DNA from: a virus | Virus record (IMG/VR): IMGVR_UViG_3300000117_000003 | Direction: 5' to 3' (one strand) | DNA: 41,176 nucleotides | The notes under the pieces: model-generated | Database searches by the model: none | What the model saw: only the letters and a program-made list of their open reading frames with translations | What the model was told of the DNA's origin: nothing | Translations under genes and position numbers: made by a program | Shown: piece after piece, positions 8,065 through 41,176 of the stretch | Layout of the letters: each line of letters starts with the position of its first letter | Numbering within the stretch: the stretch's first letter is position 1

Positions 8065-8065
8065 G

Positions 8066-8458: not shown

Positions 8459-8471
8459 CTCTTAGGAGAGT

Positions 8472-8495: not shown

Positions 8496-8518
8496 TTCAT
8501 TAATTTAAGGAGAGAGCA

Positions 8519-10290: not shown

Positions 10291-10305
10291 AGTTCTCTCC
10301 TTTAT

Positions 10306-12974: not shown

Positions 12975-13245
12975 AGATAAACCTGCTGAATTTAAAGAAG
13001 ATGTAGAGCAGATCTTATCTTTCTATATTGTTTTAGATAGAGCATGGAGAAAACCTCCAACACTTAAATCTACATTTTCAAGAGAAGGTGCTTTTCATAT
13101 AGCTATTTGTGCCTCAATGAATTTTATTACCAACTGCATTAATTATGAAGATGATATCTATGGTAATGAATGGTTAATAACTGAAGCAGGTATGAATTTT
13201 AAAAAGGAGTTAGACAATGCGTTACGCGACCTTATCGAAAAGTAA
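12859..13245 (+). CDS. Hypothetical protein, start uncertain
   Basis: The frame is open across the 240-bp gap between DNAP and the exonuclease. The only ATGs upstream of residue ~97 (12859, 12868) lie inside the DNAP gene, 107-116 nt before its stop. Confidence 0.4.
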   Translation: MQNMSVTSLEEWRKKQEIIGRCKSPQDLPLEALGLKPTKDKPAEFKEDVEQILSFYIVLDRAWRKPPTLKSTFSREGAFHIAICASMNFITNCINYEDDIYGNEWLITEAGMNFKKELDNALRDLIEK

Positions 13246-13975
13246 ACCAACATTATTAATTGATGCTGATTTATACCTGTATAGATCTTGTGTCGCCTCA
13301 GAAGAAGAAATTTGTTGGTCTGAAGAAGATGACATTTGGAGTCTATACGCAGATCTTAAAGTAGCTAAACAGATTTTCACAGAACAAATAGATAGCTTTT
13401 GTCAAAAGTTAAATACATCAGAAATACTAATGTGTTTGTCTGCACCAGATAACTTTAGAAAAGATGTTTACCCTCTCTACAAATCAGGAAGAAAAAAGAC
13501 TAGGAAACCACTTGGATATAGAGCATTTGTTGATTGGTGTAAAGAAACTTATCCATATCACGTTGAACCCAAATGTGAAGCTGATGATGTTATGGGATAC
13601 ATCCAATCATCTAATAAAACACCTACAGTTATCGTGAGTGATGATAAAGATCTAAAGACAATCTCAGGCAAGCTATATAGACCTATGAGTGATGAGTTAC
13701 TTGAGATTAAACCTAAAGATGCTGATTACAACTGGTTAACTCAATGTTTAGTCGGTGATTCAGTAGATGGTTATAAAGGATGCCCAAGAATAGGAGAAAA
13801 GACAGCTATTAAAGTCTTAGGAAATCATCCTAGTTGGGACTTAGTAGCCCAAGCATACATCAAAGCAGGGTTAACCAAGAAAGACGCTTTAGTCCAATCA
13901 CAGTTAGCCAGAATACTTAGACATACCGATTGGGATACAAAGAAAAACAAAATAAAACTATGGAAACCAAAGTGA
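13217..13975 (+). CDS. 5'-3' exonuclease / flap endonuclease (T7 gp6 role, PIN-FEN fold)
   Basis: LLIDADLYLYR, EADDVMG, VSDDKDL, and the H3TH-like LVGDSVDGYKGCPRIGEKTA. Confidence 0.85.
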   Translation: MRYATLSKSKPTLLIDADLYLYRSCVASEEEICWSEEDDIWSLYADLKVAKQIFTEQIDSFCQKLNTSEILMCLSAPDNFRKDVYPLYKSGRKKTRKPLGYRAFVDWCKETYPYHVEPKCEADDVMGYIQSSNKTPTVIVSDDKDLKTISGKLYRPMSDELLEIKPKDADYNWLTQCLVGDSVDGYKGCPRIGEKTAIKVLGNHPSWDLVAQAYIKAGLTKKDALVQSQLARILRHTDWDTKKNKIKLWKPK

Positions 13976-14716: not shown

Positions 14717-15088
14717 TTAAGCACATTCTCTGCATTTCTGAGCAGGTATCGTTTGACCTGTTAGCATTGCACCTAAAAATAAAACTGCACATTGACTCGC
14801 TGATTGTCTTTTGTCAATGAGCATACATGGAGCGTCTTCTTCAAAATGCCATGTGATCTTATCTTCCCAACAAACAATAGATTCTGAAGATTCTAATGTA
14901 TGTTCATCACACATTTCTGATAAAGACACTTGGGACATAAGAAACCCAATCTCACCAGTTTCATTGTTGTTCACAATTTGCATAATATAGTCTTTTAAAT
15001 CTTTACCACCTGCTTCTAAACCTGCGCATACATGGTCACTAAAACTTTGTGCGTTCTTACCTAATTTTATTTCTTTTTTCTTACTCAT
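14717..15088 (-). CDS. Hypothetical Cys-rich protein (123 aa)
   Basis: ORF preceded by TAGAGGAGATAGAGAGAT. No motif recognised. Confidence 0.6.
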   Translation of the reverse strand: MSKKKEIKLGKNAQSFSDHVCAGLEAGGKDLKDYIMQIVNNNETGEIGFLMSQVSLSEMCDEHTLESSESIVCWEDKITWHFEEDAPCMLIDKRQSASQCAVLFLGAMLTGQTIPAQKCRECA

Positions 15089-15422
15089 ATCTCTCTATCT
15101 CCTCTAATTTATATGTTATACCATCTTTTCTAATTAATAAACATAACCACTCAGTACCTATCGTTTCAAGATAACCATCAACTTCTTTTGTTGGGTATAC
15201 ATTACAATGTAGAGTCCCTGTAGAGTCGCATTTGTGAACCCCTGTGTCTTCTCCTGTTTGATCCCAACATTCAATGTCGAATGATTTATCATCAATTTCT
15301 ATACCAGTCCAAAGTGATTCTTCTCCGTTTTTATCTTTACAGAAATTATCAAATATTTTTATAGCTTTATTGGTGGCTATCTTTAATTGGTCTTCTGTAA
15401 TCCAGTCAACTTTTGTCACCAT
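15081..15422 (-). CDS. Hypothetical acidic, Cys-containing protein (113 aa from ATG 15422)
   Basis: ATG 15422 is preceded by GAGGAGATTT. The longer ORF-track start lacks an SD. Confidence 0.6.
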   Translation of the reverse strand: MVTKVDWITEDQLKIATNKAIKIFDNFCKDKNGEESLWTGIEIDDKSFDIECWDQTGEDTGVHKCDSTGTLHCNVYPTKEVDGYLETIGTEWLCLLIRKDGITYKLEEIERYE

Positions 15423-15690
15423 AAATCTCCTCACCATAAAAATTATTAACGAAATCATAATAATCAACAGAAATCATGAGCATATACGCATCTTCATATT
15501 CAGCGTTGTTTACTTTTACTAAAAGATTATATCCGTCATGTATTTCTGCATCAGAATGACATAAACTCTCTATCTTCAAATCATCTTTACACCATAGAGT
15601 TATTTCGTCTGCTGTATCTATATCAAAAGCTGATAAACCTACAGCGTTCTCAATCATTTGTTCTTTTGATATGTTGTATAATTCACCCAT
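15406..15690 (-). CDS. Hypothetical highly acidic protein (94 aa)
   Basis: ATG 15690 is preceded by TAGAGGAGATTACTG. The protein is Asp/Glu-rich throughout. Confidence 0.6.
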   Translation of the reverse strand: MGELYNISKEQMIENAVGLSAFDIDTADEITLWCKDDLKIESLCHSDAEIHDGYNLLVKVNNAEYEDAYMLMISVDYYDFVNNFYGEEIYGDKS

Positions 15691-15866
15691 CAGTAATCTC
15701 CTCTAATTACCATTAGTTTTTGATCTATTATTGATTTATATATACTGCCTTCCTCAGATAAATAGATTGTTTTTTGTTTATCTTTATTACCACAACAAGG
15801 GCATACATCAGTATGTTGGTCAATTTCAAAATAATGACTATCACATTTTAGACATTCAACTATCAT
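15690..15866 (-). CDS. Small zinc-ribbon protein (58 aa from ATG 15866)
   Basis: CLKCDSHYFEIDQHTDVCPCCGN gives CxxC...CxxC. ATG 15866 is preceded by AGAGGAGATTTCTG. Confidence 0.6.
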   Translation of the reverse strand: MIVECLKCDSHYFEIDQHTDVCPCCGNKDKQKTIYLSEEGSIYKSIIDQKLMVIRGDY

Positions 15867-15987
15867 CAGAAATCTCCTCTCTGCAATTACAACCAAATTC
15901 CTCAAAAAGTTTTTCTGACCATTTACCTGTCTTATCAGATATTCCGCATTGACAGTTATTTTCTATCCAATATTCTATTTTACTCAT
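15856..15987 (-). CDS. Small Cys-rich hypothetical protein (43 aa, below the ORF-track cutoff)
   Basis: ATG 15987 is preceded by the same AGAGGAGATTTCTG element. Translation: MSKIEYWIENNCQCGISDKTGKWSEKLFEEFGCNCREEISDDS. Confidence 0.45.
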   Translation of the reverse strand: MSKIEYWIENNCQCGISDKTGKWSEKLFEEFGCNCREEISDDS

Positions 15988-16183
15988 CAGAAATCTCCTC
16001 TACTGATTCGTCTAAACGCTCTAAGAAATAAATTAAATCATGTATCAAATCTTCTAATGTATTGTCATTATCCGTTCCACCATGCACTCTTTTAATATCT
16101 CCTAAAGAATGTGATTCAATAGTTTTTCTTATGTCATACGCATTGAATAATGCGTTGCTTGTTTCATTACTTAGATTTTTCAT
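15980..16183 (-). CDS. Hypothetical acidic protein (67 aa)
   Basis: ATG 16183 is preceded by TAAGGGAGAATAAGG. Confidence 0.55.
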   Translation of the reverse strand: MKNLSNETSNALFNAYDIRKTIESHSLGDIKRVHGGTDNDNTLEDLIHDLIYFLERLDESVEEISDE

Positions 16184-16315
16184 CCTTATTCTCCCTTATT
16201 ATTTGTATTTCTATATTTAATAAACTTGAGAGCTAGAGATCTACTGGTAAATGTTTCGCCAGTAGATATCTGAAACTCTCTCTTGTTTATCTTTGTAATC
16301 TGATGACACATACAA

Positions 16316-16510
16316 TCACCAGTTACTACTGACGGCTTGATAGTCAACGCTAGATATATTTCTACCCTGATTGATTAGGTCGTTACATAGCTCTATGTTT
16401 ATGCCATGTTGCTCGCACAATTGTTTTACAGTCAAACACTCTGCCTGCCATTGTTTATATATGTAGACAGAGAAAGCATCACTAGCTTGTACTCTTGTTG
16501 TTGTATTCAT
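16316..16510 (-). CDS. Small protein with possible HTH (64 aa from ATG 16510)
   Basis: ATG 16510 is preceded by TAGAGGAGATAAACAA. LTVKQLCEQHGINIELCNDLINQGR looks helix-turn-helix-like, but the call is weak. Confidence 0.5.
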   Translation of the reverse strand: MNTTTRVQASDAFSVYIYKQWQAECLTVKQLCEQHGINIELCNDLINQGRNISSVDYQAVSSNW

Positions 16511-16567
16511 TTGTTTATCTCCTCTAGTTATTATTAATAAAAGTAACCATATCAAGCAATATAAAAA

Positions 16568-16831
16568 CTATAATTGACCTAATACTTTGTATATTAAATC
16601 CCACGCTTTTTTATTAGGGGTTTGAAAGTCAACATTTTCTTTCAATCCTAAATGATGAATTCTTCTCCTTTTGGCTACTGATGCGTCACGCAAATTATGC
16701 TTATATTCGTGACCCCAAAAATACGCAATACCCATATATTTTTTCGTCCCAACATACGATTGATCTAACTTATGTAAGTCACATAATGATTCAAAATCAA
16801 TAGCGTTTAAATTGATACTGTAATTACTCAT
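16568..16831 (-). CDS. Hypothetical basic protein (87 aa)
   Basis: ATG 16831 is preceded by TAACTAAGGGAGAAAT. Confidence 0.6.
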   Translation of the reverse strand: MSNYSINLNAIDFESLCDLHKLDQSYVGTKKYMGIAYFWGHEYKHNLRDASVAKRRRIHHLGLKENVDFQTPNKKAWDLIYKVLGQL

Positions 16832-16847
16832 TTTATTTCTCCCTTAG

Positions 16848-16937
16848 TTAAATAATAATTTGAGCTTCAATTAATATGACTAAACAAAGTTTAAGTCCTA
16901 CTAATATAAACATGGCTTTTTGTGTGTTACTGAACAT
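16848..16937 (-). CDS. Possible 29-aa hydrophobic peptide
   Basis: ATG 16937 is preceded by GGAGGAAG. Translation: MFSNTQKAMFILVGLKLCLVILIEAQIII, with a single TM-like stretch. Confidence 0.3.
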   Translation of the reverse strand: MFSNTQKAMFILVGLKLCLVILIEAQIII

Positions 16938-16967
16938 CTTTACTTCCTCCAGTTATTAAACATAATA

Positions 16968-16991
16968 AAACCCACTCGATTGAATGGGTTT
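16968..16991 (-). terminator. Candidate intrinsic terminator or attenuator within the leftward block
   Basis: AAACCCA pairs with TGGGTTT (7-bp stem, 10-nt loop). On the minus strand it is followed by a T-rich tract (TTATTATGTTT). Confidence 0.3.
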
Positions 16992-17005
16992 GATATGTTC
17001 AACTG

Positions 17006-17329
17006 TTATTGAGGTTTACCAACATTAATTGTTTCATTGGTGCTTATTGGTCTTATGACATTGCCATAATTACCAACTAAGCATTGATTATAATCACGTT
17101 GACTGATACCAAAACTAGAATTCATCATGTCTAATAACCCATTTAATCTTTCTCTAGTGGTTACGCTTCCCCATCCGCACATATTGATCTCAATATCGCC
17201 ATTAGGTAATCGCCATGCGATTTCATTTCCATGTAAATATAAACTACTGCCATTGGTCATGGTGTTACCAACTGATTTATATTCATCGTTTAAAAATGCT
17301 TTTACTGTTTGCTCTGTTACTTTTCTCAT
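17006..17329 (-). CDS. Hypothetical protein (107 aa from ATG 17329)
   Basis: ATG 17329 is preceded by GAGAGGATAAGAAG. Translation begins MRKVTEQTVKAFLNDEYKSVGNTMTNGSSLYLHGNEIAWRL...GWGSVTTRERLNGLL. It resembles a recurrent phage/plasmid small-protein family that I cannot name. Confidence 0.6.
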   Translation of the reverse strand: MRKVTEQTVKAFLNDEYKSVGNTMTNGSSLYLHGNEIAWRLPNGDIEINMCGWGSVTTRERLNGLLDMMNSSFGISQRDYNQCLVGNYGNVIRPISTNETINVGKPQ

Positions 17330-17397
17330 CTTCTTATCCTCTCTTTTGGTTAAAATTAATCTTAATAAAGCGCACCTGATAGATGCACTTGATAAGA

Positions 17398-17712
17398 TCA
17401 ACTGTTATTGAGGTAATCGGCTACAATTTCTTCACCGATAATGTAAGCGTACATATTAACGACTTTCTCAGGTTCGCTTAAGTCTGTGAATACTTCACCG
17501 AAACAATATTGCTCATAATCTTTGATATGATTAATGACTTCAAAAGCCATATCACCTAACCATTTTTTAGCTTGGTATCTGCCGATAATGTAGTAATCAG
17601 TATTAAAAACTTCATGGTGTAGATCATCTTTGTTTTCTTCTATCCATGCTTCATCAACATCATTTAGAAAATCATTAAAATGCTGTTTAATTTCTTGTTT
17701 CTTATAGTCCAT
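17398..17712 (-). CDS. Hypothetical acidic protein (104 aa), first gene of the leftward block
   Basis: ATG 17712 is preceded by TAACTAAGGGAGAAATCAAG. Confidence 0.6.
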   Translation of the reverse strand: MDYKKQEIKQHFNDFLNDVDEAWIEENKDDLHHEVFNTDYYIIGRYQAKKWLGDMAFEVINHIKDYEQYCFGEVFTDLSEPEKVVNMYAYIIGEEIVADYLNNS

Positions 17713-26451: not shown

Positions 26452-26803
26452 ACCAAAAGGTGTACCCGATGGTTATAGAAAAGAAACCATTGAACCGTTA
26501 AGAAAAAAAGCAAAAGAAGAAGCAAAAAAGGTAACAAAAATTATGAGTGAAAAATACAACATTGAAGACGACTATCAAAAAGAAGCTTTGTCTACAGCCG
26601 TAGAAATCATGCGTCTTGTAGGTGAAACCAGAGAACGTCTTGCAGCAGCTAGACTGGTTTTAGATTTTACTAAATCAAAACCTGCCTCTAAAAGTGATGT
26701 ATCTATCAGTAAGGCTGAAGACTTTTTGGCTTCATTATTGAATGAGGATGAGCAACAGAATGAACAAGAAACTAGCGAAAGTACGAAAGAAGTTACTGAA
26801 TGA
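26300..26803 (+). CDS. Small terminase subunit candidate (possible start 26384)
   Basis: It sits immediately upstream of, and overlapping, terL. It has a basic N-terminal region with NGGRPKGVPDG, then helical and acidic C-terminal parts. The call is based on position and composition. Confidence 0.4.
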   Translation: MRKARQKAPPKKKKHPTKAPKNNYFATLMSTPEGRALRKEWSTRPRKNGGRPKGVPDGYRKETIEPLRKKAKEEAKKVTKIMSEKYNIEDDYQKEALSTAVEIMRLVGETRERLAAARLVLDFTKSKPASKSDVSISKAEDFLASLLNEDEQQNEQETSESTKEVTE

Positions 26804-28331
26804 TTTTAGTTTCTATGCCAAATCAGCTTTAAAGATAAGAACCAAAGAAGGAAAAATAGCACCACTTCAACTAAATCCAGCACAAGAGATACTTAATAAA
26901 GTAATCAATGACCAGATGGATACTGAAGGTAAAATTAGAGTCATAATACTCAAAGCACGACAACAAGGATTATCTACTTATACAGGTGGTTATTTTTATT
27001 TTTCTGTAAGTCAAAAACCTGCAAGAAAAGCAATGGTCGTAACGCATCATGCGGATTCAACAAGAGCCTTATTTGATATGACAAAAAGGTTTCATGAGCA
27101 TTGCCCTGATATATTAAAACCACATACAAAATATTCATCAAGACGAGAAATTAACTTTGATGTTTTAGATTCAGGATTTGTGGTCGCAACAGCAGGTGGA
27201 GAAAGTATTGGACGAGGTGAAACCTTAACTCACGTTCATGCTTCAGAATTGGCTTTCTGGCAAAAAAGTACGGCATTAGATAACTGGAATGGATTAACCC
27301 AAGCAGTACCAAACACAAAAGGTACAGCCATATTTGTAGAATCAACAGCCAATGGTATTTCTGGAGTTTTCTACGATCTATGGAGAGGTGCATGTGATGG
27401 TAGTAATGGTTTTGTACCTTGTTTTATACCGTGGTTTACTGACCCTAATTACAGAGAAAAAGTACCTAAAAACTTTGAAAGAACCCCTGAAGAAAATGAT
27501 CTAATCAAAGAATATGATTTAGATGATGAACAGCTCATGTTCAGGCGAAGAAAAATAGCTCAGAATGGTATTGATTTATTTAGACAAGAATACCCAGCAG
27601 AGCCAGAAGAAGCTTTCTTAACTACTGGTAGACCAGTATTTAATCCAGAGCAACTACAGAAAATCTTAGTTAATACACCTGATTTAATAGATAGATTAGC
27701 ATTAGAAGGCGATGAGTTTGTAAACAACGCTAGAGGTGAATTAACAACTTACAGAAAACACCAAGATAGTGAACAGTATGTTATTGGTGCTGATGTTGCT
27801 ATGGGTGTAAGAAATGGTGACTACAGTGTAGCTCAAGTTTTAGATTCAAAGAAAAGACAAGTAGCTATCTGGAGAGGACACGTTCACCCTGATTATTTTT
27901 CTGAAATACTTTATGCGTTAGGTGAATATTACAATCAAGCTTTTATCTGTGTAGAGAATAACTCTCACGGAATACTAACCTGTACTCGTCTTGCAAAAGA
28001 TATGAATTATCCTAATTTTTATACTGAAGTACAGGTCGATAAATTGACTGACAGAGAAACTATAAAGCTTGGGTTTACTACAACAGCAAAAACAAAACCT
28101 TTAATAATAGATCAATTAAGAGCTTCAATGCGTGAAAACGAAATAGAGCTTAATGATAAAACAACTATTAGAGAAATGATGAGTTACATCGTAACTGAAT
28201 CTGGAGCAATGCAAGCAGAAGCAGGAGCGTTTGATGACACTATTATTTCTTTGGCTTTAGCTAACCACGTTCATGAAGGTGCGTGGCAACCTGTTAAATT
28301 TAATGACGACTTTTATATTGAGATGGTTTAA
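26742..28331 (+). CDS. terL: Terminase large subunit
   Basis: N-terminal LNDFSFYAKSALKIRTKEGKIAPLQLNPAQE, Walker-A-like ILKARQQGLSTY, and a C-terminal nuclease-like region with IGADVAMG...ENNSHG...FDDT. It is followed 3 nt later by the portal gene. Confidence 0.85.
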   Translation: MRMSNRMNKKLAKVRKKLLNDFSFYAKSALKIRTKEGKIAPLQLNPAQEILNKVINDQMDTEGKIRVIILKARQQGLSTYTGGYFYFSVSQKPARKAMVVTHHADSTRALFDMTKRFHEHCPDILKPHTKYSSRREINFDVLDSGFVVATAGGESIGRGETLTHVHASELAFWQKSTALDNWNGLTQAVPNTKGTAIFVESTANGISGVFYDLWRGACDGSNGFVPCFIPWFTDPNYREKVPKNFERTPEENDLIKEYDLDDEQLMFRRRKIAQNGIDLFRQEYPAEPEEAFLTTGRPVFNPEQLQKILVNTPDLIDRLALEGDEFVNNARGELTTYRKHQDSEQYVIGADVAMGVRNGDYSVAQVLDSKKRQVAIWRGHVHPDYFSEILYALGEYYNQAFICVENNSHGILTCTRLAKDMNYPNFYTEVQVDKLTDRETIKLGFTTTAKTKPLIIDQLRASMRENEIELNDKTTIREMMSYIVTESGAMQAEAGAFDDTIISLALANHVHEGAWQPVKFNDDFYIEMV

Positions 28332-28333
28332 AC

Positions 28334-30370
28334 ATGGCAAAAAAACAATTTGATAAATTGGATGATACAAATATTATTGCACTTGTAGATGATAATGTTA
28401 GACAAGCAGTAGGCTACTACGATTCTGAAATATCTAATGAACGTACTAGAGTAATTGATTACTACAACGCTACACTTCCAAAACCAGTACATTCAGGAAA
28501 CTCTAAATATGTATCACAGGATGTATACGATGCAGTAGAATCTATGAAATCAGCACTACTAGAAACATTCTCTAGTGGTGGAGCAGTAAACACAGTTAAA
28601 TTTGATGCTGTAAATGCAGATGATGTAGCTCAAGCTAACACTTGTACTAATTATGTCAACTATGTAGCACATAGACAGAATGATATGTTTAGCGTCATGA
28701 GTAGTGTTATCCATGATGCTCTTGTAGCAAGAAATGGTATAGCAAAAGTTTATTGGCAAGAACAAGAAGAAGTCACTCCAGAATACTTTGAGAATCTAAA
28801 TCCTGATGAATTAGATATGCTCATATCCCAAGATAACATTGAGTTAAGTGATAGTGTAGTAGATGAATTTGGGTTTACATCTGGAGAAATACTTGTATCA
28901 AGAGATACTTCTCAAGTCATTATAGAAAACATTGCACCTGAAGAATTTTTAATAGAGCCTCAAGCAAAAAGTCTTGATGACGTTTCTTTTGTTGCTCACA
29001 GAACTAGAAAAACTTTATCTGAGTTACGAGAAGAAGGTTACTCAGAAGAAATCATTGGTAAAATTGGAGATCATTCCGATGTTGACCATGAGACAGACCC
29101 AGAGGTATTAGCTAGATTTGATAACGTAGGATCTAGTCTTGCCTTTAACAATAACGACTACCAAGACCAAGTACGATCAGTACAAATTGTAGAAGCATAT
29201 ATACATTTGGATATCGAGGGTTCGGGTATAGCGGATTTGTGGCGTATCACCAAAGCTGGCAATGCACTGTTATCGAAAGTGAAAGTGACCAGAAAACCCT
29301 TCATTACGTTTTCCCCTATACCCATCCCTCATTCTTTCTTTGGTAGTAATTTTGGTGACAAAGTTGTTCCGACACAAAATGCAAGAACTGTATTAACAAG
29401 ATCAATTTTAGATCATGCTGTAGTTACTAATAATCCAAGATACATGGTTACTAAAGGTTCTTTACCTAACCCAAGAGAACTTATAGATAACAGAGTAGGT
29501 GGTATTGTAAACGTAACAAGACCTGATGCTATAACTCCAATGATGCAGCCTAATTTGAACCCATTTGTATTCCAAACTATCAAGATGCTAGATGAGCAGC
29601 TAGAAGATACAACTGGTGTTGCAGCTATATCTCAAGGTTTAAATAAAGATGCTGTAAGTAAACAAAACAGTGCTGCCATGATAGAACAACTACAAACTAT
29701 GAGTCAGCAAAGACAAAAGATTATAGCTAGGCATTTTGCAACTCAATTTATTAAACCAATGTATCAAGAGATATACGCATTATGTGTAGAAAATGAAGAT
29801 CAAGAAAAGATTGTAGATATTGGTGGTGAATATGTCGCCATTACACCTGCACAATGGGCTGACAAAAGAGATGTAACTATTAGTCTGCATCTTGGTTATG
29901 GTGAACAAGAAAGAGAGTCACAGAAAATGATTGGGATGCACCAAACATTTACTCAAGACCCAAGTTTACAACGTATGTATACACCTAATAACCAATATGA
30001 ATTAATGAAAAAGGTTATGGAATTAAATGGGATAAAAGATGCTACAACATTCTTAACACCTCCAGAACAACTACCAGAACCACAACCAGATCCAGCAGCA
30101 ATGATGCAAATGGAATTAGCACAGAAGCAAATGGAAATACAAGAAAGACAGACTGTTATAGGTGAGGCTAAATTACAAAGTGATATTGAGAAAGATAAAC
30201 TCAAACATCAATTAGATGTCATGAAAGCTGAGAACCAATTTGCTATCCAATCAGATCAAGTTGATATTAAAGAAGACACGTTAGATCACAAGAAAGCTGT
30301 AGATGCTGCTGAATTAGAATTAGCAAATAGAGCAGAAGAAATAACCGCAATTGCAAGTCCAAACGCATAG
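28334..30370 (+). CDS. Portal protein
   Basis: 678-aa ORF directly after terL and before scaffold and capsid. It has a charged helical C-terminal tail, typical of a portal. Confidence 0.8.
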   Translation: MAKKQFDKLDDTNIIALVDDNVRQAVGYYDSEISNERTRVIDYYNATLPKPVHSGNSKYVSQDVYDAVESMKSALLETFSSGGAVNTVKFDAVNADDVAQANTCTNYVNYVAHRQNDMFSVMSSVIHDALVARNGIAKVYWQEQEEVTPEYFENLNPDELDMLISQDNIELSDSVVDEFGFTSGEILVSRDTSQVIIENIAPEEFLIEPQAKSLDDVSFVAHRTRKTLSELREEGYSEEIIGKIGDHSDVDHETDPEVLARFDNVGSSLAFNNNDYQDQVRSVQIVEAYIHLDIEGSGIADLWRITKAGNALLSKVKVTRKPFITFSPIPIPHSFFGSNFGDKVVPTQNARTVLTRSILDHAVVTNNPRYMVTKGSLPNPRELIDNRVGGIVNVTRPDAITPMMQPNLNPFVFQTIKMLDEQLEDTTGVAAISQGLNKDAVSKQNSAAMIEQLQTMSQQRQKIIARHFATQFIKPMYQEIYALCVENEDQEKIVDIGGEYVAITPAQWADKRDVTISLHLGYGEQERESQKMIGMHQTFTQDPSLQRMYTPNNQYELMKKVMELNGIKDATTFLTPPEQLPEPQPDPAAMMQMELAQKQMEIQERQTVIGEAKLQSDIEKDKLKHQLDVMKAENQFAIQSDQVDIKEDTLDHKKAVDAAELELANRAEEITAIASPNA

Positions 30371-30379
30371 GAGAAAAGT

Positions 30380-30445
30380 ATGCCTTCAGGAAAAGGAACG
30401 TATGGAAAAAAAAGAGGCAGACCGCCTAAAAAGAAAAAGAAATAG
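30380..30445 (+). CDS. Possible 21-aa basic mini-ORF with AT-hook-like core
   Basis: AGGAGAAAAGT precedes the ATG. Translation: MPSGKGTYGKKRGRPPKKKKK (RGRP core). An intrinsic terminator follows. Confidence 0.25.
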   Translation: MPSGKGTYGKKRGRPPKKKKK

Positions 30446-30454
30446 TAACCCCCC

Positions 30455-30478
30455 AAGCCTCTTTATTGAGGCTTTTTT
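30455..30478 (+). terminator. Rho-independent terminator after portal
   Basis: AAGCCTC-TTTATT-GAGGCTT followed by TTTTAT. Confidence 0.65.
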
Positions 30479-30501
30479 ATGTCTAATTAAAGGAGACACA
30501 A

Positions 30502-30774
30502 ATGAGCAAACAAGAAGAAACCCTAGTGAAATTAGGAGACGATGCAGAAGAACTTATGAATACTCCTGTATTCACGAACACAATCAATGCACTTGTTGAA
30601 GCGACTTTTCAAGCTTTTATAAATTCTGAGCCTGATAAGTCAAAAGAAAGAGAAGTAACCTACACTCATTACAGAGCTATTGTAGATATTGTTAATACAT
30701 TGAAACAACGGATTTCTGTAAGAGATGAAATTAATGAAAAACTAAAAAGCGATAACAGCAAAAACGAGGAGTAA
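30502..30774 (+). CDS. Hypothetical head-module protein
   Basis: AAGGAGACAC SD. 90-aa helical ORF between portal and scaffold. Confidence 0.6.
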   Translation: MSKQEETLVKLGDDAEELMNTPVFTNTINALVEATFQAFINSEPDKSKEREVTYTHYRAIVDIVNTLKQRISVRDEINEKLKSDNSKNEE

Positions 30775-30780
30775 AGGATC

Positions 30781-31848
30781 ATGTCAAACGATAACGTCCA
30801 ACAAAACCCCACGTCTCCAGTAGCGTTGACAATTGATGATGCTGCTGAAGCCATTTTAAATAACTGGAGGGACGCTGATGAGCCATCCCAAGAAGGTAAT
30901 TTAGAGGCAACCGATGATTCAGGTGAGACTACTGATGAAGCGGTAATTGAGGATACTGAAAACGAAGTAGCCGAAGATGAGAATGAAGACCCTGAGCAAA
31001 CATCCCAAGAAGAAATTGAAGATGAAGACAATAGCGAAACAGAAGATCAAGATGAAAATTCTGAAGAATCAGAAGAAGAATCAGAAGAAGAATTAGAAGT
31101 CTTACCTGATGAAGCTATTGTTGAAGTTACAGTGGATGGGAATGTAGAACAGGTATCTGTTAAGTCTCTGAAACGATTACACGGACAAGAAAGTAGTCTT
31201 ACCAAGAAGTCTCAAGAAGTAAGTAACCAGCGCAAAGAAGCAGATGAAGCTCTTAAACAAGCTGATTTTGTGATGCAAAGTATGTTAACTAGAGCTGAAG
31301 AACGCTATAAGCCTTATGCCGAAGTAGACATGTTGTTAGCCTCTAAAACAATGGAAGCTGATGATTTTGCTCTATTACGTTCTGAAGCAAATCAAGCTCA
31401 AAGTGATTTAAAATACTTAAAAGAAGAAAGTCAAAAGTTTTATACTGAAGCTCAAGAAAAGATGGTAGCTCAACAGCAAGAAAACGCTAAAAAAGCTATA
31501 GAAGTCTTACAAAAAGATATACCTGAGTGGAGTACAAAACTGTATGACCAAATTCGTGAGTTTTCTATAACATCTGGATTGCCTGAACAGGAAGTTAACC
31601 AGTATTCAGACCCGACTGTAATTAAGTTATTACATAAGGCTATGCTGTATGACAAATCTAAAAAGACAGCCAATGTTAAAAAGGTGAAAGCCAAGAAAAC
31701 TAAAGTATTAAGATCAAAGAAAGCTCCCCCATCACCTAAGCAAACTAAAGATGTTCGTAAGCAAGCAGCCTACGACAAACTTAGAACTCAAGGTGGTAGT
31801 GATTTAGATGACATATCAGCAGCAATCTTAGCAGGCTGGGAATCTTAA
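30781..31848 (+). CDS. Scaffolding protein candidate
   Basis: It sits between portal and major capsid. The N-terminal third is extremely acidic (EDENEDPEQTSQEEIEDEDNSETEDQDENSEESEEESEEE), followed by coiled-coil and a basic C-terminus. Confidence 0.65.
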   Translation: MSNDNVQQNPTSPVALTIDDAAEAILNNWRDADEPSQEGNLEATDDSGETTDEAVIEDTENEVAEDENEDPEQTSQEEIEDEDNSETEDQDENSEESEEESEEELEVLPDEAIVEVTVDGNVEQVSVKSLKRLHGQESSLTKKSQEVSNQRKEADEALKQADFVMQSMLTRAEERYKPYAEVDMLLASKTMEADDFALLRSEANQAQSDLKYLKEESQKFYTEAQEKMVAQQQENAKKAIEVLQKDIPEWSTKLYDQIREFSITSGLPEQEVNQYSDPTVIKLLHKAMLYDKSKKTANVKKVKAKKTKVLRSKKAPPSPKQTKDVRKQAAYDKLRTQGGSDLDDISAAILAGWES

Positions 31849-31883
31849 ATTATCTTTAACCTTTAATACAATAGGAAATCAAC

Positions 31884-32765
31884 ATGGCTACATATACTAC
31901 CTACACTTCTGTAGGACAAGCCGAAGATGTATCATCTCTTATAGCAATGATTTCTCCAACTGCCACTCCCTTTCAAAGCATGGTCAAGAACGAAAAGACT
32001 TCTGCAAGAACTTTTGAGTGGATGGAGGATGCGTTAAGAGCTAGTGCTGACAATAAAAAAGTTGAAGGAGCAGATGCTTCTACAATTACTATCAGCCCGA
32101 CTACACTTCGCAGCAACACATGTCAGATTATAGCTGAGGCATTTGCTGTCTCTGGTACTGCTGACGCTGTTAAAACACATGGTCGCGCCACTGAAACTGC
32201 GTATCAACTATCAAAAACTCTTAAAGTAATCAAAAACGATTACGAAAGAGCAATGGTAGGAATCTCTAATGCACTAGCAGCAGGAAACGCTAGTACCGCT
32301 AGAGAGATGGCATCAATAGATCAGCAAATCTCTACAACTTTAGATGCAGGTTCAAACTCAACAGATGCTTTAACAGAAGCAAAATTGTTAACTTTGCACC
32401 AAACATGTTACACAAATGGTTCTGAACCATCTGTATTCATGATTAAACCTGCTGATGCTACTATCATTGCTGGTTTTGCGACTGCAACTGGTAGAAATCG
32501 TGAGATTGATGCGAAGCAACTTACTAATGTGATTGACGTAATTCTAACTCCATTCGGGGAATTGAGGACTGTAATAAATAGACAGAATTTAAGCACACAT
32601 GGGTACTTAATTGATCCATCTATGTTTAGGACTGTTACGTTACGTCCATTTGCAAGAACTTTACTCGCTAAAAATGGCGATGCTGACACACACAATGTTG
32701 TCGGTGAAGTTTCTGTGAAACACATGTCTTTCGCTGATTCAGGAATGATTACTGGATTGTCGTAA
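31884..32765 (+). CDS. Major capsid protein
   Basis: 293-aa ORF after the scaffold gene. The N-terminal ISPTATPFQSMV...ARTFEWMEDAL is typical of one podovirus HK97-fold capsid family. A strong terminator follows, as is usual for capsid genes. Confidence 0.8.
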   Translation: MATYTTYTSVGQAEDVSSLIAMISPTATPFQSMVKNEKTSARTFEWMEDALRASADNKKVEGADASTITISPTTLRSNTCQIIAEAFAVSGTADAVKTHGRATETAYQLSKTLKVIKNDYERAMVGISNALAAGNASTAREMASIDQQISTTLDAGSNSTDALTEAKLLTLHQTCYTNGSEPSVFMIKPADATIIAGFATATGRNREIDAKQLTNVIDVILTPFGELRTVINRQNLSTHGYLIDPSMFRTVTLRPFARTLLAKNGDADTHNVVGEVSVKHMSFADSGMITGLS

Positions 32766-32777
32766 GTAATAAATTAG

Positions 32778-32838
32778 GGGATTGGTTAGATATAGGGTTT
32801 TGCTCTCCTTAACTATGTCTAATCTTTCCCTTTTTTTT
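32778..32838 (+). terminator. Rho-independent terminator after the capsid gene
   Basis: GGGATTGGTTAGA pairs with TCTAATCTTTCCC (with a TT/TT internal loop), followed by T8 (32831-32838). Confidence 0.7.
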
Positions 32839-32861
32839 AATTTATCAAAAGGAATATTTAA

Positions 32862-33179
32862 ATGTCAACAAAAGACAAAAACACACCTTTTAATGATGTT
32901 GAGCAACGTCTGGCTAAAGATCCAGATTCATTAATGACCCTCCAAAATCAACAGCAGATACCACAAAGTTACATTGATGGTTTAAAAAGTGATAAATGGG
33001 ATTCAAGGAGTACAAGAGCAGGTGATTACATGCGAGTAGCAAGTATTCCTGCTGTGGTTTATGACCAATGGAAAAGAGAAGGTTTTGATGCACTCAAAGA
33101 ACCTCCTAAAGAAATATTAAAAAGATTAAAACAGCAGAATTTAGATGCGTTTATAACTACTAACAAGCGAGTTTATTAA
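32862..33179 (+). CDS. Hypothetical head/neck protein
   Basis: 105-aa ORF in the structural block. No motif recognised. Confidence 0.55.
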   Translation: MSTKDKNTPFNDVEQRLAKDPDSLMTLQNQQQIPQSYIDGLKSDKWDSRSTRAGDYMRVASIPAVVYDQWKREGFDALKEPPKEILKRLKQQNLDAFITTNKRVY

Positions 33180-33181
33180 TA

Positions 33182-33790
33182 ATGAATTACGGTGATCTAA
33201 GAACACATTTTAAAGCACTACTAAATCGTAGTGATATAACGGATGCACTAGCAAATACTTTTATAGATCAAGGTATTGCTAGAATCCAAAGAACACTGAG
33301 AATACCAAGTATGGAAAAACAACATACATACACAATATCAGCTCAGACTTCAAAAGTAACAATACCAAATGATTTCTTAGAAGCCATAGATTTAATCTAC
33401 GATAACCACACGTTAAGTAGAGTACCTATGAAAGAAATACAGGATTATAAAAAAGCAGGACAAACTGGATCTCCCCACATGTTTACTAGAGAAGGTGGAT
33501 CTTTCTTGTTATATCCAGAGCCTACAGGTGGGAGTCTAATATTAAATTATTACGCTCAATATACAGCTTTGTCTGCTGATTCAGATACCAATGTATTAAC
33601 AGATATTGCATCAGATTTAATTTGCTATGCAGCTTTAGTTTACGCAAGTGATTACTTTCTTGATGATCGTAGAACTGTATTTGAAACAACGTATCTTTCA
33701 TTCTTAATAGAAATACAGGAACAAGCTAACGATGCTGAAATGTCAGGCAGTCTTCAATCTATAAGACCTGCTTATCAATTAGATATATAG
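33182..33790 (+). CDS. Head-tail adaptor candidate
   Basis: 202-aa ORF between the capsid and fibre genes. The N-terminal LRTHFKALLNRSDITDALANTFIDQGIARIQRTLRIP pattern resembles adaptor/connector proteins. The assignment is positional. Confidence 0.4.
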   Translation: MNYGDLRTHFKALLNRSDITDALANTFIDQGIARIQRTLRIPSMEKQHTYTISAQTSKVTIPNDFLEAIDLIYDNHTLSRVPMKEIQDYKKAGQTGSPHMFTREGGSFLLYPEPTGGSLILNYYAQYTALSADSDTNVLTDIASDLICYAALVYASDYFLDDRRTVFETTYLSFLIEIQEQANDAEMSGSLQSIRPAYQLDI

Positions 33791-38422: not shown

Positions 38423-38914
38423 ATGGCACTTACAAGCAGTGGCGCAATAGCCATGTCAGAGATCGGAACAGAACTATCAAACGCAAGTAGAAGCCTAAGA
38501 ACCCTTAGTGCTGCTGCTGGTAAATCAACTCCAGATTCATTTAGTGAGTTTTATTCATTCAGTGCTGGCGGTAGTTTTTCATTAGGCAACATAAGTGGCT
38601 CTACCAGTCAGGCATTTAAGACTACAAGTACAACATCAACTGGAATCAATCAGACAATTACTCTTAGATTTAACTTAACTAAAAATGGTAATGATGCCAA
38701 TCAGTATATTGTGGTCTATAAAAATGGTAGTTCCCAAGTCCAGATTACTTCAGGTAATTCAGATTTAACTGGTGTTACATCGAGTGATACATTTTATGTT
38801 GCAGCTTACAATTCTCAAGGTGAGCAGTTTGTAGGAACTATAACAGTGACAGATCAAACTAATGGAAATCAGTTAGACCAAAGTAGTATTAACTTTTATC
38901 GCGAGGAAGAATAA
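38423..38914 (+). CDS. Hypothetical tail-associated protein
   Basis: 163-aa Ser/Thr-rich ORF directly after the fibre genes. The assignment is positional only. Confidence 0.5.
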   Translation: MALTSSGAIAMSEIGTELSNASRSLRTLSAAAGKSTPDSFSEFYSFSAGGSFSLGNISGSTSQAFKTTSTTSTGINQTITLRFNLTKNGNDANQYIVVYKNGSSQVQITSGNSDLTGVTSSDTFYVAAYNSQGEQFVGTITVTDQTNGNQLDQSSINFYREEE

Positions 38915-39102
38915 TGGAATCTACTGATAAAGATTTAATTGATATAGCAGCAGGAGCAACTGGTGTAGCCACATACGCTCAAATTTTACCCAATATGGCT
39001 GCTTTATTTACCATCGTTTGGCTGGGAATACGCATATTAGAAAGCGATACAGCACAATCAATCAAAGATAAGGTTTTAAAACTATGCAAATCCAAAGATT
39101 AA
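38914..39102 (+). CDS. Small holin candidate
   Basis: 62 aa with hydrophobic stretches (IAAGATGVATYAQIL, MAALFTIVWLGIRIL) and a charged C-terminus. It overlaps the endolysin start. Confidence 0.5.
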   Translation: MESTDKDLIDIAAGATGVATYAQILPNMAALFTIVWLGIRILESDTAQSIKDKVLKLCKSKD

Positions 39103-39500
39103 AAGATCAACTAAAGATACATGAAGGTGTAGTCTTAAAACTTTATAAATGTAGTCAAGGGTATTACACATGTGGTGTGGGTAGAAACATACAAGCTAAC
39201 GGTATTTCTATGGAAGAAGCTGAACTCATGTTGGCTAATGATATAGACGATTGCATCGTGGATCTAAAGAGAAACATTGGTTTTTTTAATGATCTACCTG
39301 AGACAATACAGGAAGTTATGGTCAATCTATGTTTTAACATTGGTATAAACAAATTGTTAAACTTTAAGAAGACTATAGGTTTACTAAGAGATGAAAAATA
39401 CCTAGAAGCTGGCGATGAAATTTTACGATCAAAATGGTCAAAACAAGTAGGACAGAGAAGTCATGATTTAGCAGACATGATCCGAAGCTGTGCATCCTAA
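39084..39500 (+). CDS. T4-type (GH24) lysozyme endolysin
   Basis: KIHEGVVLKLYKCSQGYYTCGVGRN aligns with T4 lysozyme [23 protein letters not shown]. The E-x8-(D/C)-x5-T triad is present as E-x8-C-x5-T. There is no N-terminal TM/SAR segment. Confidence 0.88.
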   Translation: MQIQRLKDQLKIHEGVVLKLYKCSQGYYTCGVGRNIQANGISMEEAELMLANDIDDCIVDLKRNIGFFNDLPETIQEVMVNLCFNIGINKLLNFKKTIGLLRDEKYLEAGDEILRSKWSKQVGQRSHDLADMIRSCAS

Positions 39501-39853
39501 TGTTAGACGATGTAATACGTCTAGTTAATGACGTAGGTTTCCCAATAGCCAGTGCTGGTGCTTTAGGTTTCTTTATATGGAAGTTGATTAACAGAATAAT
39601 CGACAACATGGAAAAGAAGATAGACCTACTCGATGAAAAACTACAGAGCATCATTAATACTTCTGAAGAACGATTAGCCAATAAACTAGATAGTCAACAT
39701 GGAATCATTGTCGCCTTAATAGATAGAGTGAGGGCATTGGATAACCAAACAATACGTCAAGATGTCTTACTAAAGACACTTCTTGGTGTTCCTAATTTAA
39801 TTGAAATAGATAAAATTGCTAAGGCGGATCGAGATGACCAACGAAAAGATTAA
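39500..39853 (+). CDS. Membrane-anchored coiled-coil protein (i-spanin-like or holin-like; function unresolved)
   Basis: N-terminal TM (VGFPIASAGALGFFIWKLI) followed by heptad-like helical sequence. ATGTTAG overlaps the lysozyme stop. No embedded or adjacent o-spanin lipoprotein ORF was found. Confidence 0.45.
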   Translation: MLDDVIRLVNDVGFPIASAGALGFFIWKLINRIIDNMEKKIDLLDEKLQSIINTSEERLANKLDSQHGIIVALIDRVRALDNQTIRQDVLLKTLLGVPNLIEIDKIAKADRDDQRKD

Positions 39854-40301
39854 GCTATTCTTCTTAGCAACTTTACCTGTATTAGTATTAATTACATTTG
39901 TAGAAATCAAAAGTGATGAATTATCTTATAGATTTAAGTCACCTTCTTTTTCAAGGATTAATACTTCAAGTCATTATTTGACTATAGAAAACCAAGAGTC
40001 TACTAGAAGACAATCAATAAAGGATCAACTAGAAGCCTATCAAGATGATATAGAAAGAGAAGCAGATAACTCTACGTTGAGTCGTTTTATTCGTAACTTA
40101 GAATCTCGTATCTATGCACAGCTATCGCGACAGATGGTAGAGCAATTATTCGGAGAGACACCACAAACAGAAGGTAAGCTTGAATTGGAAGGTAACACGA
40201 TTGAATACATGGTGAAAGATGAACTTATTACGCTTACGATTACAGATGAAACAGGCGGTACAACTACTATTACTGTCCCTATCGGTAGCTTTACTTTCTA
40301 G
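39834..40301 (+). CDS. csgF: CsgF homologue (curli assembly/transport component); ORF open from 39816
   Basis: Signal peptide MTNEKIKLFFLATLPVLVLITFVEIKS. YRFKSPSFSRINTSSHYL aligns with the E. coli CsgF N-terminal FQFRNPNFGGNPNNGAFL. The C-terminal IEYMVKDELITLTITDETGGTTTITV aligns with [29 protein letters not shown]. Both alignments are from memory of the E. coli protein. Confidence 0.75.
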   Translation: MTNEKIKLFFLATLPVLVLITFVEIKSDELSYRFKSPSFSRINTSSHYLTIENQESTRRQSIKDQLEAYQDDIEREADNSTLSRFIRNLESRIYAQLSRQMVEQLFGETPQTEGKLELEGNTIEYMVKDELITLTITDETGGTTTITVPIGSFTF

Positions 40302-41067
40302 TTGTACTCCAAGATATACAGCATTACTCGAAGAAGGTGGTATTCCTTATATAGTAATAAAAAAAGCTTCAATACTTGAGTTACAAAATGAAGAACTTTT
40401 AAAACTAAAGCCAGCCATAAGAAAACCTGTAATAGCTATATATCCTAATAGCTTTTTAGATCATACAGGACAAAGAAAGTCTAATGGTAACTTTGCTTTA
40501 TTTTCTACAGCAATTACTCAAGCACCAGAAGCTTTCTTAATAAGAGCTTTAAAACATGCAGCTAATGGTGAGTTTTTCCAAGTGGCAGAAAGAGTTGGTT
40601 TAGACTCATTGACTAAAGAAAGGCAATTAATAAGAAGCACACGCGAAACTTTTGACGAGGAGAGTGTCGTCAAACCTCTTTTATTGGCAGGGTTATTAAT
40701 GCAGGGTGCTGTACTAAGCATAGATACTAACGTAAAAACAGGTGGTATAGGAGCTAGGTACTTAGGTATCGGATCAAGTAAAGAATATAGAGAAGACATA
40801 ATTACTTTGTCTCTTAGGCTTGTATCTGTGTCTACTGGTGAGGTTCTAATAGAAGTTTTAGTTAGTAAGAGTGTTATATCAGTAGGTGTATCTCAAGATT
40901 TATTTAGGTTTATATCTAATGGTACAAAGTTAGTAGAAATAGAAGGTGGAGCAAGTGAAAACGAAAGTACATCTATAGCCTTACAACAAGCTATTGAAGA
41001 AGGAGTGTTGAATATAATTAATATTGGACTCAACAGAGGGTATTGGAAAAATGAAGAAACTAATTAG
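40246..41067 (+). CDS. csgG: CsgG homologue (outer-membrane curli secretion channel lipoprotein); ORF open from 40219
   Basis: Lipoprotein signal MKQAVQLLLLSLSVALLSSC. VIAIYPNSFLDHTGQ, FSTAITQAPEAFLIRALK, LTKERQLIRSTRE, TGGIGARYLGIGSSKEY and LRLVSVSTGEVL are collinear with E. coli CsgG (VSVYNIQDETGQ, FSTAVPQSATAMLVTALK, LLNERKIIRAAQE, SGGVGARYFGIGADTQY, LRVVNVSTGEIL). Confidence 0.9.
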   Translation: MKQAVQLLLLSLSVALLSSCTPRYTALLEEGGIPYIVIKKASILELQNEELLKLKPAIRKPVIAIYPNSFLDHTGQRKSNGNFALFSTAITQAPEAFLIRALKHAANGEFFQVAERVGLDSLTKERQLIRSTRETFDEESVVKPLLLAGLLMQGAVLSIDTNVKTGGIGARYLGIGSSKEYREDIITLSLRLVSVSTGEVLIEVLVSKSVISVGVSQDLFRFISNGTKLVEIEGGASENESTSIALQQAIEEGVLNIINIGLNRGYWKNEETN

Positions 41068-41176
41068 TATGCTAGATTGTACTTTATTTAGTGTAGCTGT
41101 AATAGCAGGTAGCGTTTATTTATTTAACGAAGTTAAAGCTGATGATAATGAGATCTATGTAGATCAAGTAGGTGCT
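41051..41176 (+). CDS. 5' part of the curlin-like repeat protein gene (signal peptide plus first repeat); continues at nt 2 after the circular junction
   Basis: ATG 41051 overlaps the csgG 3' end by 17 nt. MKKLISMLDCTLFSVAVIAGSVYLFNEVKA|DDNEIYVDQVGA gives a Sec-type signal with a VKA cleavage-like site. The frame is open to the window end and in frame with 2..670. Confidence 0.6.
   Translation, partial: MKKLISMLDCTLFSVAVIAGSVYLFNEVKADDNEIYVDQVGA
41128..41176. repeat. Terminal 49-bp exact duplication of nt 1-49 (circular closure overlap)
   Basis: cgaagttaaagctgatgataatgagatctatgtagatcaagtaggtgct is present at both window ends. Confidence 0.98.

Follow-up and report, generated by a model that had tools for sequence, protein, structure and literature searches.

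We analysed a 41,176-nucleotide stretch of phage DNA (IMG/VR record IMGVR_UViG_3300000117_000003; hereafter the window, meaning this stretch at its full length) and identified two adjacent genes, by profile and structure matches, as the CsgF and CsgG homologues of a curli-type (type VIII) secretion system carried by a marine phage. The two genes belong to a five-gene module, encoding p117, CsgF, CsgG, a secreted Asp/Asn-rich repeat protein and a FecR-domain protein, which spans the contig junction. Phage type VIII secretion modules have already been published for ocean phages between 2013 and 2022, and the window represents a new carrier. A preliminary description made from the DNA letters alone had named the same two open reading frames (ORFs) as CsgF and CsgG homologues, which the Pfam scan below bears out.

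39834-40301, + strand: CsgF homologue, from ATG to stop, 155 amino acids, with a Sec-type signal (PF10614, PHROG 35372)
40246-41067, + strand: CsgG homologue, 273 amino acids, predicted outer-membrane lipoprotein precursor (PF03783, E. coli CsgG structures)

The Pfam scan assigned the first product to CsgF (PF10614) with an E-value of 1.2e-17 (64.7 bits for a cut-off of 25.8, profile positions 6-132 of 132) and the second to CsgG (PF03783) with an E-value of 2e-44 (151.8 bits for a cut-off of 20.8, profile positions 8-208 of 210), while PHROG 35372 matched the CsgF product at 1.4e-39. A phmmer search against the PDB aligned the window CsgG with E. coli CsgG (3x2r, 4uv3, 6l7a and 6si7) at an E-value of 1.4e-38, collinearly over residues 15-277. 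This alignment contains the pairing of TGGIGARYLGIGSSKEY with SGGVGARYFGIGADTQY and the GGIGARYLGIG stretch, and places the lipobox LLSSC on LLSGC of E. coli CsgG; in about 70 related loci the lipobox is kept as L[LS]SSC, FSGC or LGSC. Residues Y51, N55 and F56 form part of the constriction loop of E. coli CsgG. In the HMMER alignment (E. coli numbering), F56 is kept in the window CsgG, Y51 is replaced by N and N55 by L, and the loop carries a one-residue insertion.

The CsgF product starts with a hydrophobic signal, KLFFLATLPVLVLITFV, followed by DELSYRFKSPSF. Searched as a single sequence, it returned no CsgF among its PDB matches; a profile of 15 phage CsgFs retrieved E. coli CsgF (6l7a chain J) at an E-value of 2e-4, with a match spanning the signal peptide and the N-terminal FQFRNPNFGGNP (FQFRNPNFGG) region. 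The window CsgF has a Sec signal followed by an N-terminal CsgG-binding peptide of the kind found in E. coli CsgF (TFQFRNPNFGGNP), and F34, P37 and F39 are invariant in the 15 phage CsgFs. Its residue 41 (39954-39956) is Arg (SPSFSRIN), where the near-identical relatives L001-L003 and almost all of the family read SPSFSGIN; the Gly at this position is at least 90% conserved in the family and matches the GG of the E. coli FGGNP motif. Arg41 could reflect either true variation or an error in sequencing. The profile and structure scores of both proteins are far beyond chance. The export signals reported in the preliminary description, a Sec signal on CsgF and the lipobox on CsgG, hold, and the lipobox is conserved in the ~70 loci; of the long collinear motif matches to E. 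coli that it proposed, the CsgG one stands in full, and the CsgF N-terminal one is real but weak, being detected by profile only.

Two in-frame ATGs were considered as the csgG start, at 40219 (282 amino acids) and at 40246 (273 amino acids). Public gene callers start the gene at 40246 (273-residue protein P0001), which is the likely start and gives the N-terminus MKQAVQLLLLSLSVALLSSC; the counterpart of ATG 40219 is the sole csgG start option in some relatives. The lipobox Cys codon begins at 40303, with the csgF stop 2 nt before it, and the whole csgG lipoprotein signal peptide is overprinted in the second frame of the csgF 3' end (40246-40301), which encodes a conserved C-terminus (TDxxGxxTxITVPIGSFTF). 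The two genes overlap by 44-56 nt, and by up to 95 nt, in ~70 podovirus loci (L001-L078); no csgF/csgG overlap is present in the myophages HTVC008M and Melnitz.

The remaining genes of the module are the following.

39500-39853, + strand: p117, small bitopic membrane protein of 117 amino acids, with one transmembrane (TM) helix and a coiled coil
41051-41176, + strand: repeat protein, 42 N-terminal codons (signal peptide and beginning of the first repeat), ORF joined across the terminal repeat
1-670, + strand: repeat protein, remainder (Asp/Asn/Thr-rich repeats of ~22-28 amino acids and a C-terminal Cys pair; hhalign, AlphaFold)
534-1688, + strand: FecR-domain protein (PF04773, E-value 6.1e-12; PHROG 37870 at 1.5e-65)

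The first gene of the module, p117, overlaps csgF by 20 nt and lies directly upstream of it in nearly all of the 80 IMG/VR loci listed, so that the four-gene module of the preliminary description has to be extended to five conserved genes. Among cultured phages we found p117 in HTVC008M and, as two copies, in Melnitz, in no place other than upstream of csgF, and it is specific to the type VIII secretion module. The protein matches PHROG 18771, a family without assigned function; it gave no Pfam match above threshold and no HisKA or HATPase match, and an alignment of 33 p117 sequences contains no invariant His. We therefore rejected its identification as a histidine kinase (HK), the name given to this gene by Wittmers et al. 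(2022). A spanin-like role was also considered and is unlikely, since a Lys/Arg cluster right after the TM helix suggests that the C-terminus would be cytoplasmic.

The repeat-protein gene runs across the contig ends. An exact 49-nt direct repeat (1-49 = 41128-41176) lies inside its ORF, and the contig is therefore circular, circularly permuted or terminally redundant, with a unique length of 41,127 bp and a guanine-plus-cytosine (GC) content of 35.6%. When joined, with the reading resuming at position 50 because positions 1-49 duplicate 41128-41176, the protein counts 248 amino acids and begins with DNEIYVDQVGATANIDLEQLGSGN, a Sec-type signal; the gene is also found uninterrupted in L001-L003, L084 and L085. 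Profile comparison (hhalign) related its family to the "curlin-associated protein" of HTVC008M (99% probability, E-value 7.5e-18) and to the first curlin-repeat protein of Melnitz (98.3% probability, E-value 1.2e-14), and the latter passes Pfam Curlin_rpt at residues 31-69, within the stretch aligned to the window family. The family profile also weakly matched the curlin-repeat fibril protein 8c50 (E-value 0.043). An AlphaFold2 model built with 36 sequences is all-beta, with a pLDDT (predicted local distance difference test) of 82.5 and a pTM (predicted template modelling score) of 0.82. On these matches we describe the protein as a divergent, Asp-rich beta-repeat protein related to curlins and a candidate curlin-like substrate. 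We also observed that its repeats contain Asp-rich motifs (DLDGDSN, DVDVDGSTN), that two C-terminal Cys are conserved and that the non-significant fold matches include an RTX beta-roll; Ca2+-dependent folding outside the cell is possible.

The start of the FecR gene is ambiguous between ATG 534 or 537, which give a hydrophobic N-terminus and an overlap with the end of the repeat gene, and ATG 642, the minimal start. The PHROG 37870 profile reaches ~26 residues upstream of the 642 start, and the FecR homologues of the myophages carry signal peptides that are clear and separate. A start at 534 or 537 gives the N-terminus RLRWINSLLWIMIGCALCL, encoded in the second frame of the repeat gene 3' end (534-670), which is possibly a second overprinted export signal.

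The gene series lysozyme, p117, CsgF, CsgG, repeat protein, FecR, p161 (a membrane protein described below), integrase and RNA polymerase occurs in at least 7 independent assemblies from different samples (L001, L002, L003, L084, L085, L086 and L092), which share 95-99% protein identity and the junctions on both sides. More widely, we listed at least 80 IMG/VR loci with p117, CsgF, CsgG and the repeat protein, with or without FecR (CsgG identity 57-99%), and a large protein collection contained 5,443 CsgG relatives at an E-value of at most 1e-20. The preliminary description had proposed looking for the gene pair next to T7-like RNA polymerase or integrase genes; the at least seven assemblies above show such a neighbourhood, and among the 80 IMG/VR loci listed only the lineage of the window shows an RNA polymerase or an integrase within 10 kb. 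Compared with six diverged loci, CsgG, CsgF, p117 and the repeat protein have nonsynonymous to synonymous substitution ratios (dN/dS) of 0.08-0.25, and these four genes are under purifying selection. In locus L013 the module proteins are 66-86% identical to those of the window, whereas the DNA polymerase is 37% and the primase-helicase 34% identical, both on the other strand; module proteins 66-86% identical beside replication proteins 34-44% identical imply that the module has been exchanged between podovirus backbones.

These data also bear on whether host chromosomal csg genes could have been joined to a phage contig during assembly, the outcome that the preliminary description had named as fatal to its claim. 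We found nothing in favour of such a chimera beyond the formal point that the module runs over the window ends. The 49-nt terminal repeat closes the circle in the repeat-protein ORF without a frame break, the arrangement is shared by the at least 7 independent assemblies, the GC content of the module (35.0%) is close to that of the rest (35.8%), with GC at third codon positions (GC3) in the same low range, and cultured phages have the module in their genomes as well. This evidence excludes an assembly artefact for practical purposes.

The module is embedded in the lysis cluster.

38914-39102, + strand: membrane protein of 62 amino acids, holin candidate (position upstream of the endolysin and hydrophobic segment)
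39084-39500, + strand: endolysin, phage lysozyme (PF00959, E-value 5e-11; PHROG 7 endolysin at 1.2e-16)
1692-2177, + strand: p161, membrane protein, last gene of the late chain (PHROG 1544 at 1.7e-27)

Upstream of the module lie tail-fibre genes, the 62-residue membrane protein, which had no family match in the Pfam and PHROG scans, and the lysozyme, whose stop overlaps the p117 start by 1 nt; downstream lies p161, which was found by tblastn in 86 phage records (Vibrio, Pseudomonas and others), is common in phages without type VIII secretion genes and may be holin-like. From 38423 to 2177, neighbouring genes overlap by 1, 19, 1, 20, 56, 17 and at least 29 nt, followed by a single 3-nt gap. A scan of the module for sigma-70 promoters and terminators did not rise above shuffled expectation, and a direct-repeat scan revealed no phage-promoter family. 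Because the genes abut or overlap throughout this chain and the promoter and terminator scan stayed at chance level, one late transcription unit running through the lysis genes and the module in lytic growth is most likely, and the module is therefore most likely not an independently promoted prophage "moron". The order of the lysis genes differs between carriers: holin candidate, lysozyme, module and p161 in the window; lysozyme, p161 and module in L055-L073; and module, p140, T4-type spanin and lysozyme in the 61-kb phages L088-L091. In a simple, heuristic scan for lipoboxes and hydrophobic stretches in all six frames of the whole window, CsgG alone among the ORFs showed a lipoprotein signal, and neither an o-spanin nor a u-spanin candidate was visible next to the holin-like and endolysin genes. 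In the 61-kb phages, where the T4-type spanin and the lysozyme come just downstream of the FecR gene, we also noted a SecB-family chaperone homologue ~3 kb upstream of csgF (L088 6574-7062; L089 3343-3831).

Outside the module, the following features define the carrier.

2413-2466, + strand: phage attachment site (attP) core, 3' part of a tRNA-Arg(CCU) gene (92.6% identity over 54 nt to tRNA-Arg(cct) of the cellular contig L081)
2599-3501, + strand: tyrosine integrase (PF00589, E-value 7.7e-21)
3485-3955, + strand: Cro/CI-type helix-turn-helix (HTH) regulator adjoining the integrase (PF01381, E-value 6.3e-11)
4687-7317, + strand: single-subunit T7-type RNA polymerase (tblastn; PF00940 in the L084 counterpart)
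31884-32765: SU10-type major capsid protein (PF17236, E-value 3.5e-72)
33182-33790: SU10 adaptor (family match)

The RNA polymerase is ~30% identical over 98-100% of its length to those of Pelagibacter phage Eistla, Ralstonia phages and others (tblastn), and the 876-residue product at the corresponding position of L084 carries PF00940. The early half is of T7 type, with RNA polymerase, single-stranded DNA-binding protein, endonuclease I, primase-helicase, DNA polymerase and 5'-3' exonuclease, the transcription and replication genes occupying 4687-13975. The structural block (26742-33790) follows the order terminase, portal, scaffold and capsid, which is not the T7-type structural module and gene order, and its portal best matches non-T7 phages at ~30% identity. 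An SU10 adaptor is likewise encoded by the module-bearing 61-kb phages. Overall, the carrier is a podovirus of mosaic make-up, "T7-like" only in its early and replication half. Neither the module nor 21.5 kb of the backbone had a nucleotide-level match among 50,697 phage records, so there is no close cultured relative among them, and a search for backbone relatives based on the RNA polymerase returned near-identical contigs only.

After p161, a 421-nt non-coding stretch containing attP precedes the integrase, the Cro/CI-type HTH gene and the RNA polymerase. No complete tRNA was detected by ARAGORN anywhere in the window. Searched against one genome per GTDB species, an exact attP pattern had no match and a degenerate pattern a single one, an intact tRNA-Arg(CCU) at L081 1277-1351. 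This contig (KatG and MtnA genes, 37.4% GC) has no prophage, leaving the tRNA unoccupied, and comes from a metagenome-assembled genome (MAG) labelled Woeseiaceae, Gammaproteobacteria. Because of this match, the host may be gammaproteobacterial rather than SAR11; the Woeseiaceae match is a lead and not a proof. The sister contig L001 carries compensatory T-stem changes in the tRNA part of its attP, as it should if attP follows the tRNAs of different hosts. Among the public contigs looked up through exact p161 matches, none contained an integrated copy, and each runs on into an integrase. In two contigs (L093 3721-4662 and L094 1589-2530), a p161 identical to that of the window is followed by a different integrase of 313 instead of 300 amino acids, from which it follows that close relatives have swapped lysogeny modules. 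With an integrase and an attachment site that matches a cellular tRNA gene, the carrier is, judged by its gene content, a previously undescribed temperate mosaic podovirus. The "T7-like temperate phage" of the preliminary description thus stands for the T7-type RNA polymerase and the rest of the early and replication half and for the tyrosine integrase and tRNA-derived attP, and fails for the capsid and adaptor, which are SU10-type.

The preliminary description did not recognise curli secretion machinery as known phage cargo, which is incorrect: GenBank KC465899 (HTVC008M) annotates CsgF, CsgG and a curlin-associated protein, Melnitz (MZ577097) does likewise, and three papers deal with such genes (PMC7029224, PMC9004378, PMC9599517). 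The gene cluster of pelagimyophages was described with uptake or "sibling capture" as proposed roles (Zaragoza-Solas et al. 2020, PMC7029224). Melnitz CsgG and CsgF were modelled, and a pinholin- or secretin-like role in lysis timing was proposed (Buchholz et al. 2022, PMC9004378). HTVC023P-type podoviruses carry a module of HK, CsgF, CsgG, CsgA/B and FecR, with or without a second CsgA/B and an adenylate cyclase (AC); the module was found at all 65 GOV2.0 stations, phage curli genes were expressed in ocean metatranscriptomes, cross-family transfer was inferred, and superinfection defence, aggregation and import were discussed (Wittmers et al. 2022, PMC9599517). Each role suggested in the preliminary description thus has a published counterpart, aggregation through curli fibres being the nearest to its biofilm or surface-amyloid idea, beside superinfection defence and the lysis pore.

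By tblastn, the window CsgG is 48% identical to that of Pelagibacter myophage HTVC008M and 43% identical to those of four strains of the OM43 phage Melnitz, all annotated as "curli production assembly/transport component". In both myophages, one or two small genes precede csgF and csgG; genes for a curlin-associated repeat protein and a FecR-domain protein come next, and then those for a second repeat protein and an adenylate cyclase. The myophages share with the window the syntenic set from the p117-like gene or genes to the FecR-domain protein and add the second repeat protein and the adenylate cyclase; their module lies between replication and structural genes, whereas that of the window lies in the lysis cluster. 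Across the 80 IMG/VR loci listed and the two cultured myophages, the window order (small "HK" gene, CsgF, CsgG, repeat protein, FecR) matches that of the marine-phage module.

The HTVC023P-type module (PMC9599517) and that of the window have the same gene order, are both marine and both lack CsgE, CsgC and CsgD, and IMG/VR relatives on 50-62-kb contigs encode a CsgG 61-84% identical to ours. The second repeat gene and the adenylate cyclase, frequent but not universal according to PMC9599517, are both missing from the window. The genomes differ: the window has 41.1 kb, 35.6% GC, a T7-type RNA polymerase and an integrase, whereas HTVC023P-type phages average 58.8 kb and 42% GC (PMC9599517), and the DNA polymerase shares just 37-44% identity. 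Neither RNA polymerase nor integrase occurs as a term in PMC9599517, and lysozyme and holin are likewise unmentioned there. We found no paper in the literature reporting the module in Autographiviridae-like phages. New here are the carrier with an integrase and a T7-type RNA polymerase, the exchange of the module seen in L013, the position of the module in the lysis cluster, the overprinted csgG signal peptide and a p117 that is not a recognisable HK.

Compared with the E. coli CsgG-CsgF channel (6l7a, 6si7, 4uv3), the window CsgG is collinear over the whole mature protein including the lipobox, the N-terminal barrel-binding motif of CsgF is recognisable in the phage family, and the two genes are adjacent in the order F-G in both; on the other hand, CsgG identity is low (the match being one by E-value), Y51 and N55 are not conserved in the HMMER alignment, and the rest of the window CsgF is detected by the Pfam profile only. 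Relative to the whole E. coli curli system, the window lacks CsgE, CsgC, CsgD and canonical CsgA and CsgB and has the extra p117 and FecR-domain genes; the absence of CsgE, CsgC and CsgD, already noted in the preliminary description, was confirmed by the lack of any Pfam or PHROG match in the 32 window ORFs scanned. Alphaproteobacterial-type curli operons are cited as also lacking CsgC, CsgD and CsgE (Dueholm et al. 2012, as cited in PMC7029224 and PMC9599517), and published trees place phage CsgG, CsgF and FecR closest to alphaproteobacterial versions (PMC7029224, PMC9599517); the host of our carrier, in contrast, may be a gammaproteobacterium.

We consider a late-expressed outer-membrane CsgG/CsgF channel exporting the adjacent repeat protein the most likely mechanism, and lean towards it with rather better than even confidence. 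From the homology, export signals, synteny, purifying selection and wide distribution, we infer how such a channel would assemble, what it would export, when, and to what effect. CsgG would be exported, lipidated at Cys20 and inserted in the host outer membrane as an oligomeric beta-barrel channel, and CsgF would be exported by Sec and plug its conserved N-terminal peptide (Y/F-R/K-F-K-S/N-P-S-F) into the CsgG barrel. The signal-peptide-bearing Asp/Asn-rich beta-repeat protein would be the secreted substrate, forming a surface fibre or adhesin, with the upstream TM/coiled-coil p117 and the downstream FecR-domain protein as conserved accessory parts, and the module would be transcribed with the late lysis genes during lytic growth. 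Several points weigh against this mechanism. CsgE was not found in the Pfam and PHROG scans of the 32 window ORFs, the window CsgG keeps a single one (F56) of the three E. coli constriction residues in the HMMER alignment, and the window CsgF has an Arg where the Gly of the family is otherwise near-invariant (at least 90%). The window repeat protein itself falls below the Pfam Curlin_rpt threshold, and its model had no significant PDB match in Foldseek, the weak matches to beta-helix and beta-roll folds lying at E-values of 0.12 or more. It is also Asp-rich, unlike the curlin repeats of E. coli, which are Gln/Asn-rich. Internal promoters within the coding sequence are possible, and Melnitz-infected cells showed no clumping (Buchholz et al. 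2022, PMC9004378).

Alternatively, CsgG and CsgF might serve as a pore only, permeabilising the outer membrane or timing lysis together with the holin and endolysin, with the repeat protein incidental or structural. This idea, proposed in outline for Melnitz (Buchholz et al. 2022, PMC9004378), draws on the location of the module in or beside lysis genes in three different arrangements and on CsgG being the sole lipoprotein-signal ORF of a genome in which no spanin candidate was seen. The lipobox scan is heuristic, however, the module of the 61-kb phages stands beside a T4-type spanin and does not replace it there, the myophage modules are not adjacent to lysis genes, and cargo genes are often placed near lysis cassettes merely for late expression. 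Moreover, conservation is as strong for the repeat protein and for CsgF as for CsgG, which a pore alone leaves unexplained, and we regard this role as unlikely, though the likeliest of the alternatives to export. We give slightly less weight still to the broader idea that in podoviruses the module is a functional part of the lysis programme rather than a fibre "accessory", which was suggested to us by the at least three lysis-cluster arrangements, the probable co-transcription with holin and endolysin, CsgG as the only lipoprotein and the absence of a recognised spanin. CsgG and CsgF, possibly with the inner-membrane p117, would then breach or prime the outer membrane, or else the Asp-rich repeat protein may be released at lysis and glue neighbouring host cells together.

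An import function, in which a CsgG pore left ungated without CsgE would admit nutrients, cofactors or siderophores with the FecR-domain protein as a sensor, has been proposed by Zaragoza-Solas et al. (2020, PMC7029224) and Wittmers et al. (2022, PMC9599517). The lack of CsgE among the window ORFs and the regular linkage of a FecR-domain protein with the module agree with it; it leaves unexplained why CsgF and a repeat protein with a signal peptide are kept under purifying selection, and the FecR domain sits on an apparently exported protein with no sigma or anti-sigma partner seen. We consider import improbable, and lysogenic conversion equally so. For the latter, an integrated prophage would express the module, and surface fibres would provide adhesion, aggregation or receptor masking against superinfection. 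The phage does have an integrase, a Cro/CI-type HTH regulator and a tRNA-Arg attP, and integration at attP would place the module at the prophage end beside attR, a common place for conversion genes. Yet the module has no free-standing promoter or intergenic space, being chained by overlaps to the late and lysis genes, and no integrated copy was found among the public contigs looked up. Most module carriers have no integrase within 10 kb of csgG, and the annotated 10.6-kb regions of HTVC008M and Melnitz, which carry the module, list none either.

Curli-type secretion by phages is a functional puzzle of marine virology, being abundant in ocean viromes and absent from known hosts. The present case adds no new kind of system; the gain is comparative, in that the module also occurs on an integrase-bearing phage with a T7-type RNA polymerase, has moved between podovirus backbones sharing 34-44% replication-protein identity, and shows a repeated tie to lysis genes and a conserved overprinted csgF/csgG junction. 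If the temperate carrier indeed has a gammaproteobacterial host, the module would move across host classes. A compact five-gene module on a 41-kb phage would also be a convenient source for heterologous expression tests.

Elsewhere in the window, a minus-strand block of small ORFs at 14717-17712 interrupts the otherwise plus-strand genome, and one of these ORFs (17006-17401) matches the Kyanoviridae Gp96 family with an E-value of 4.7e-10.

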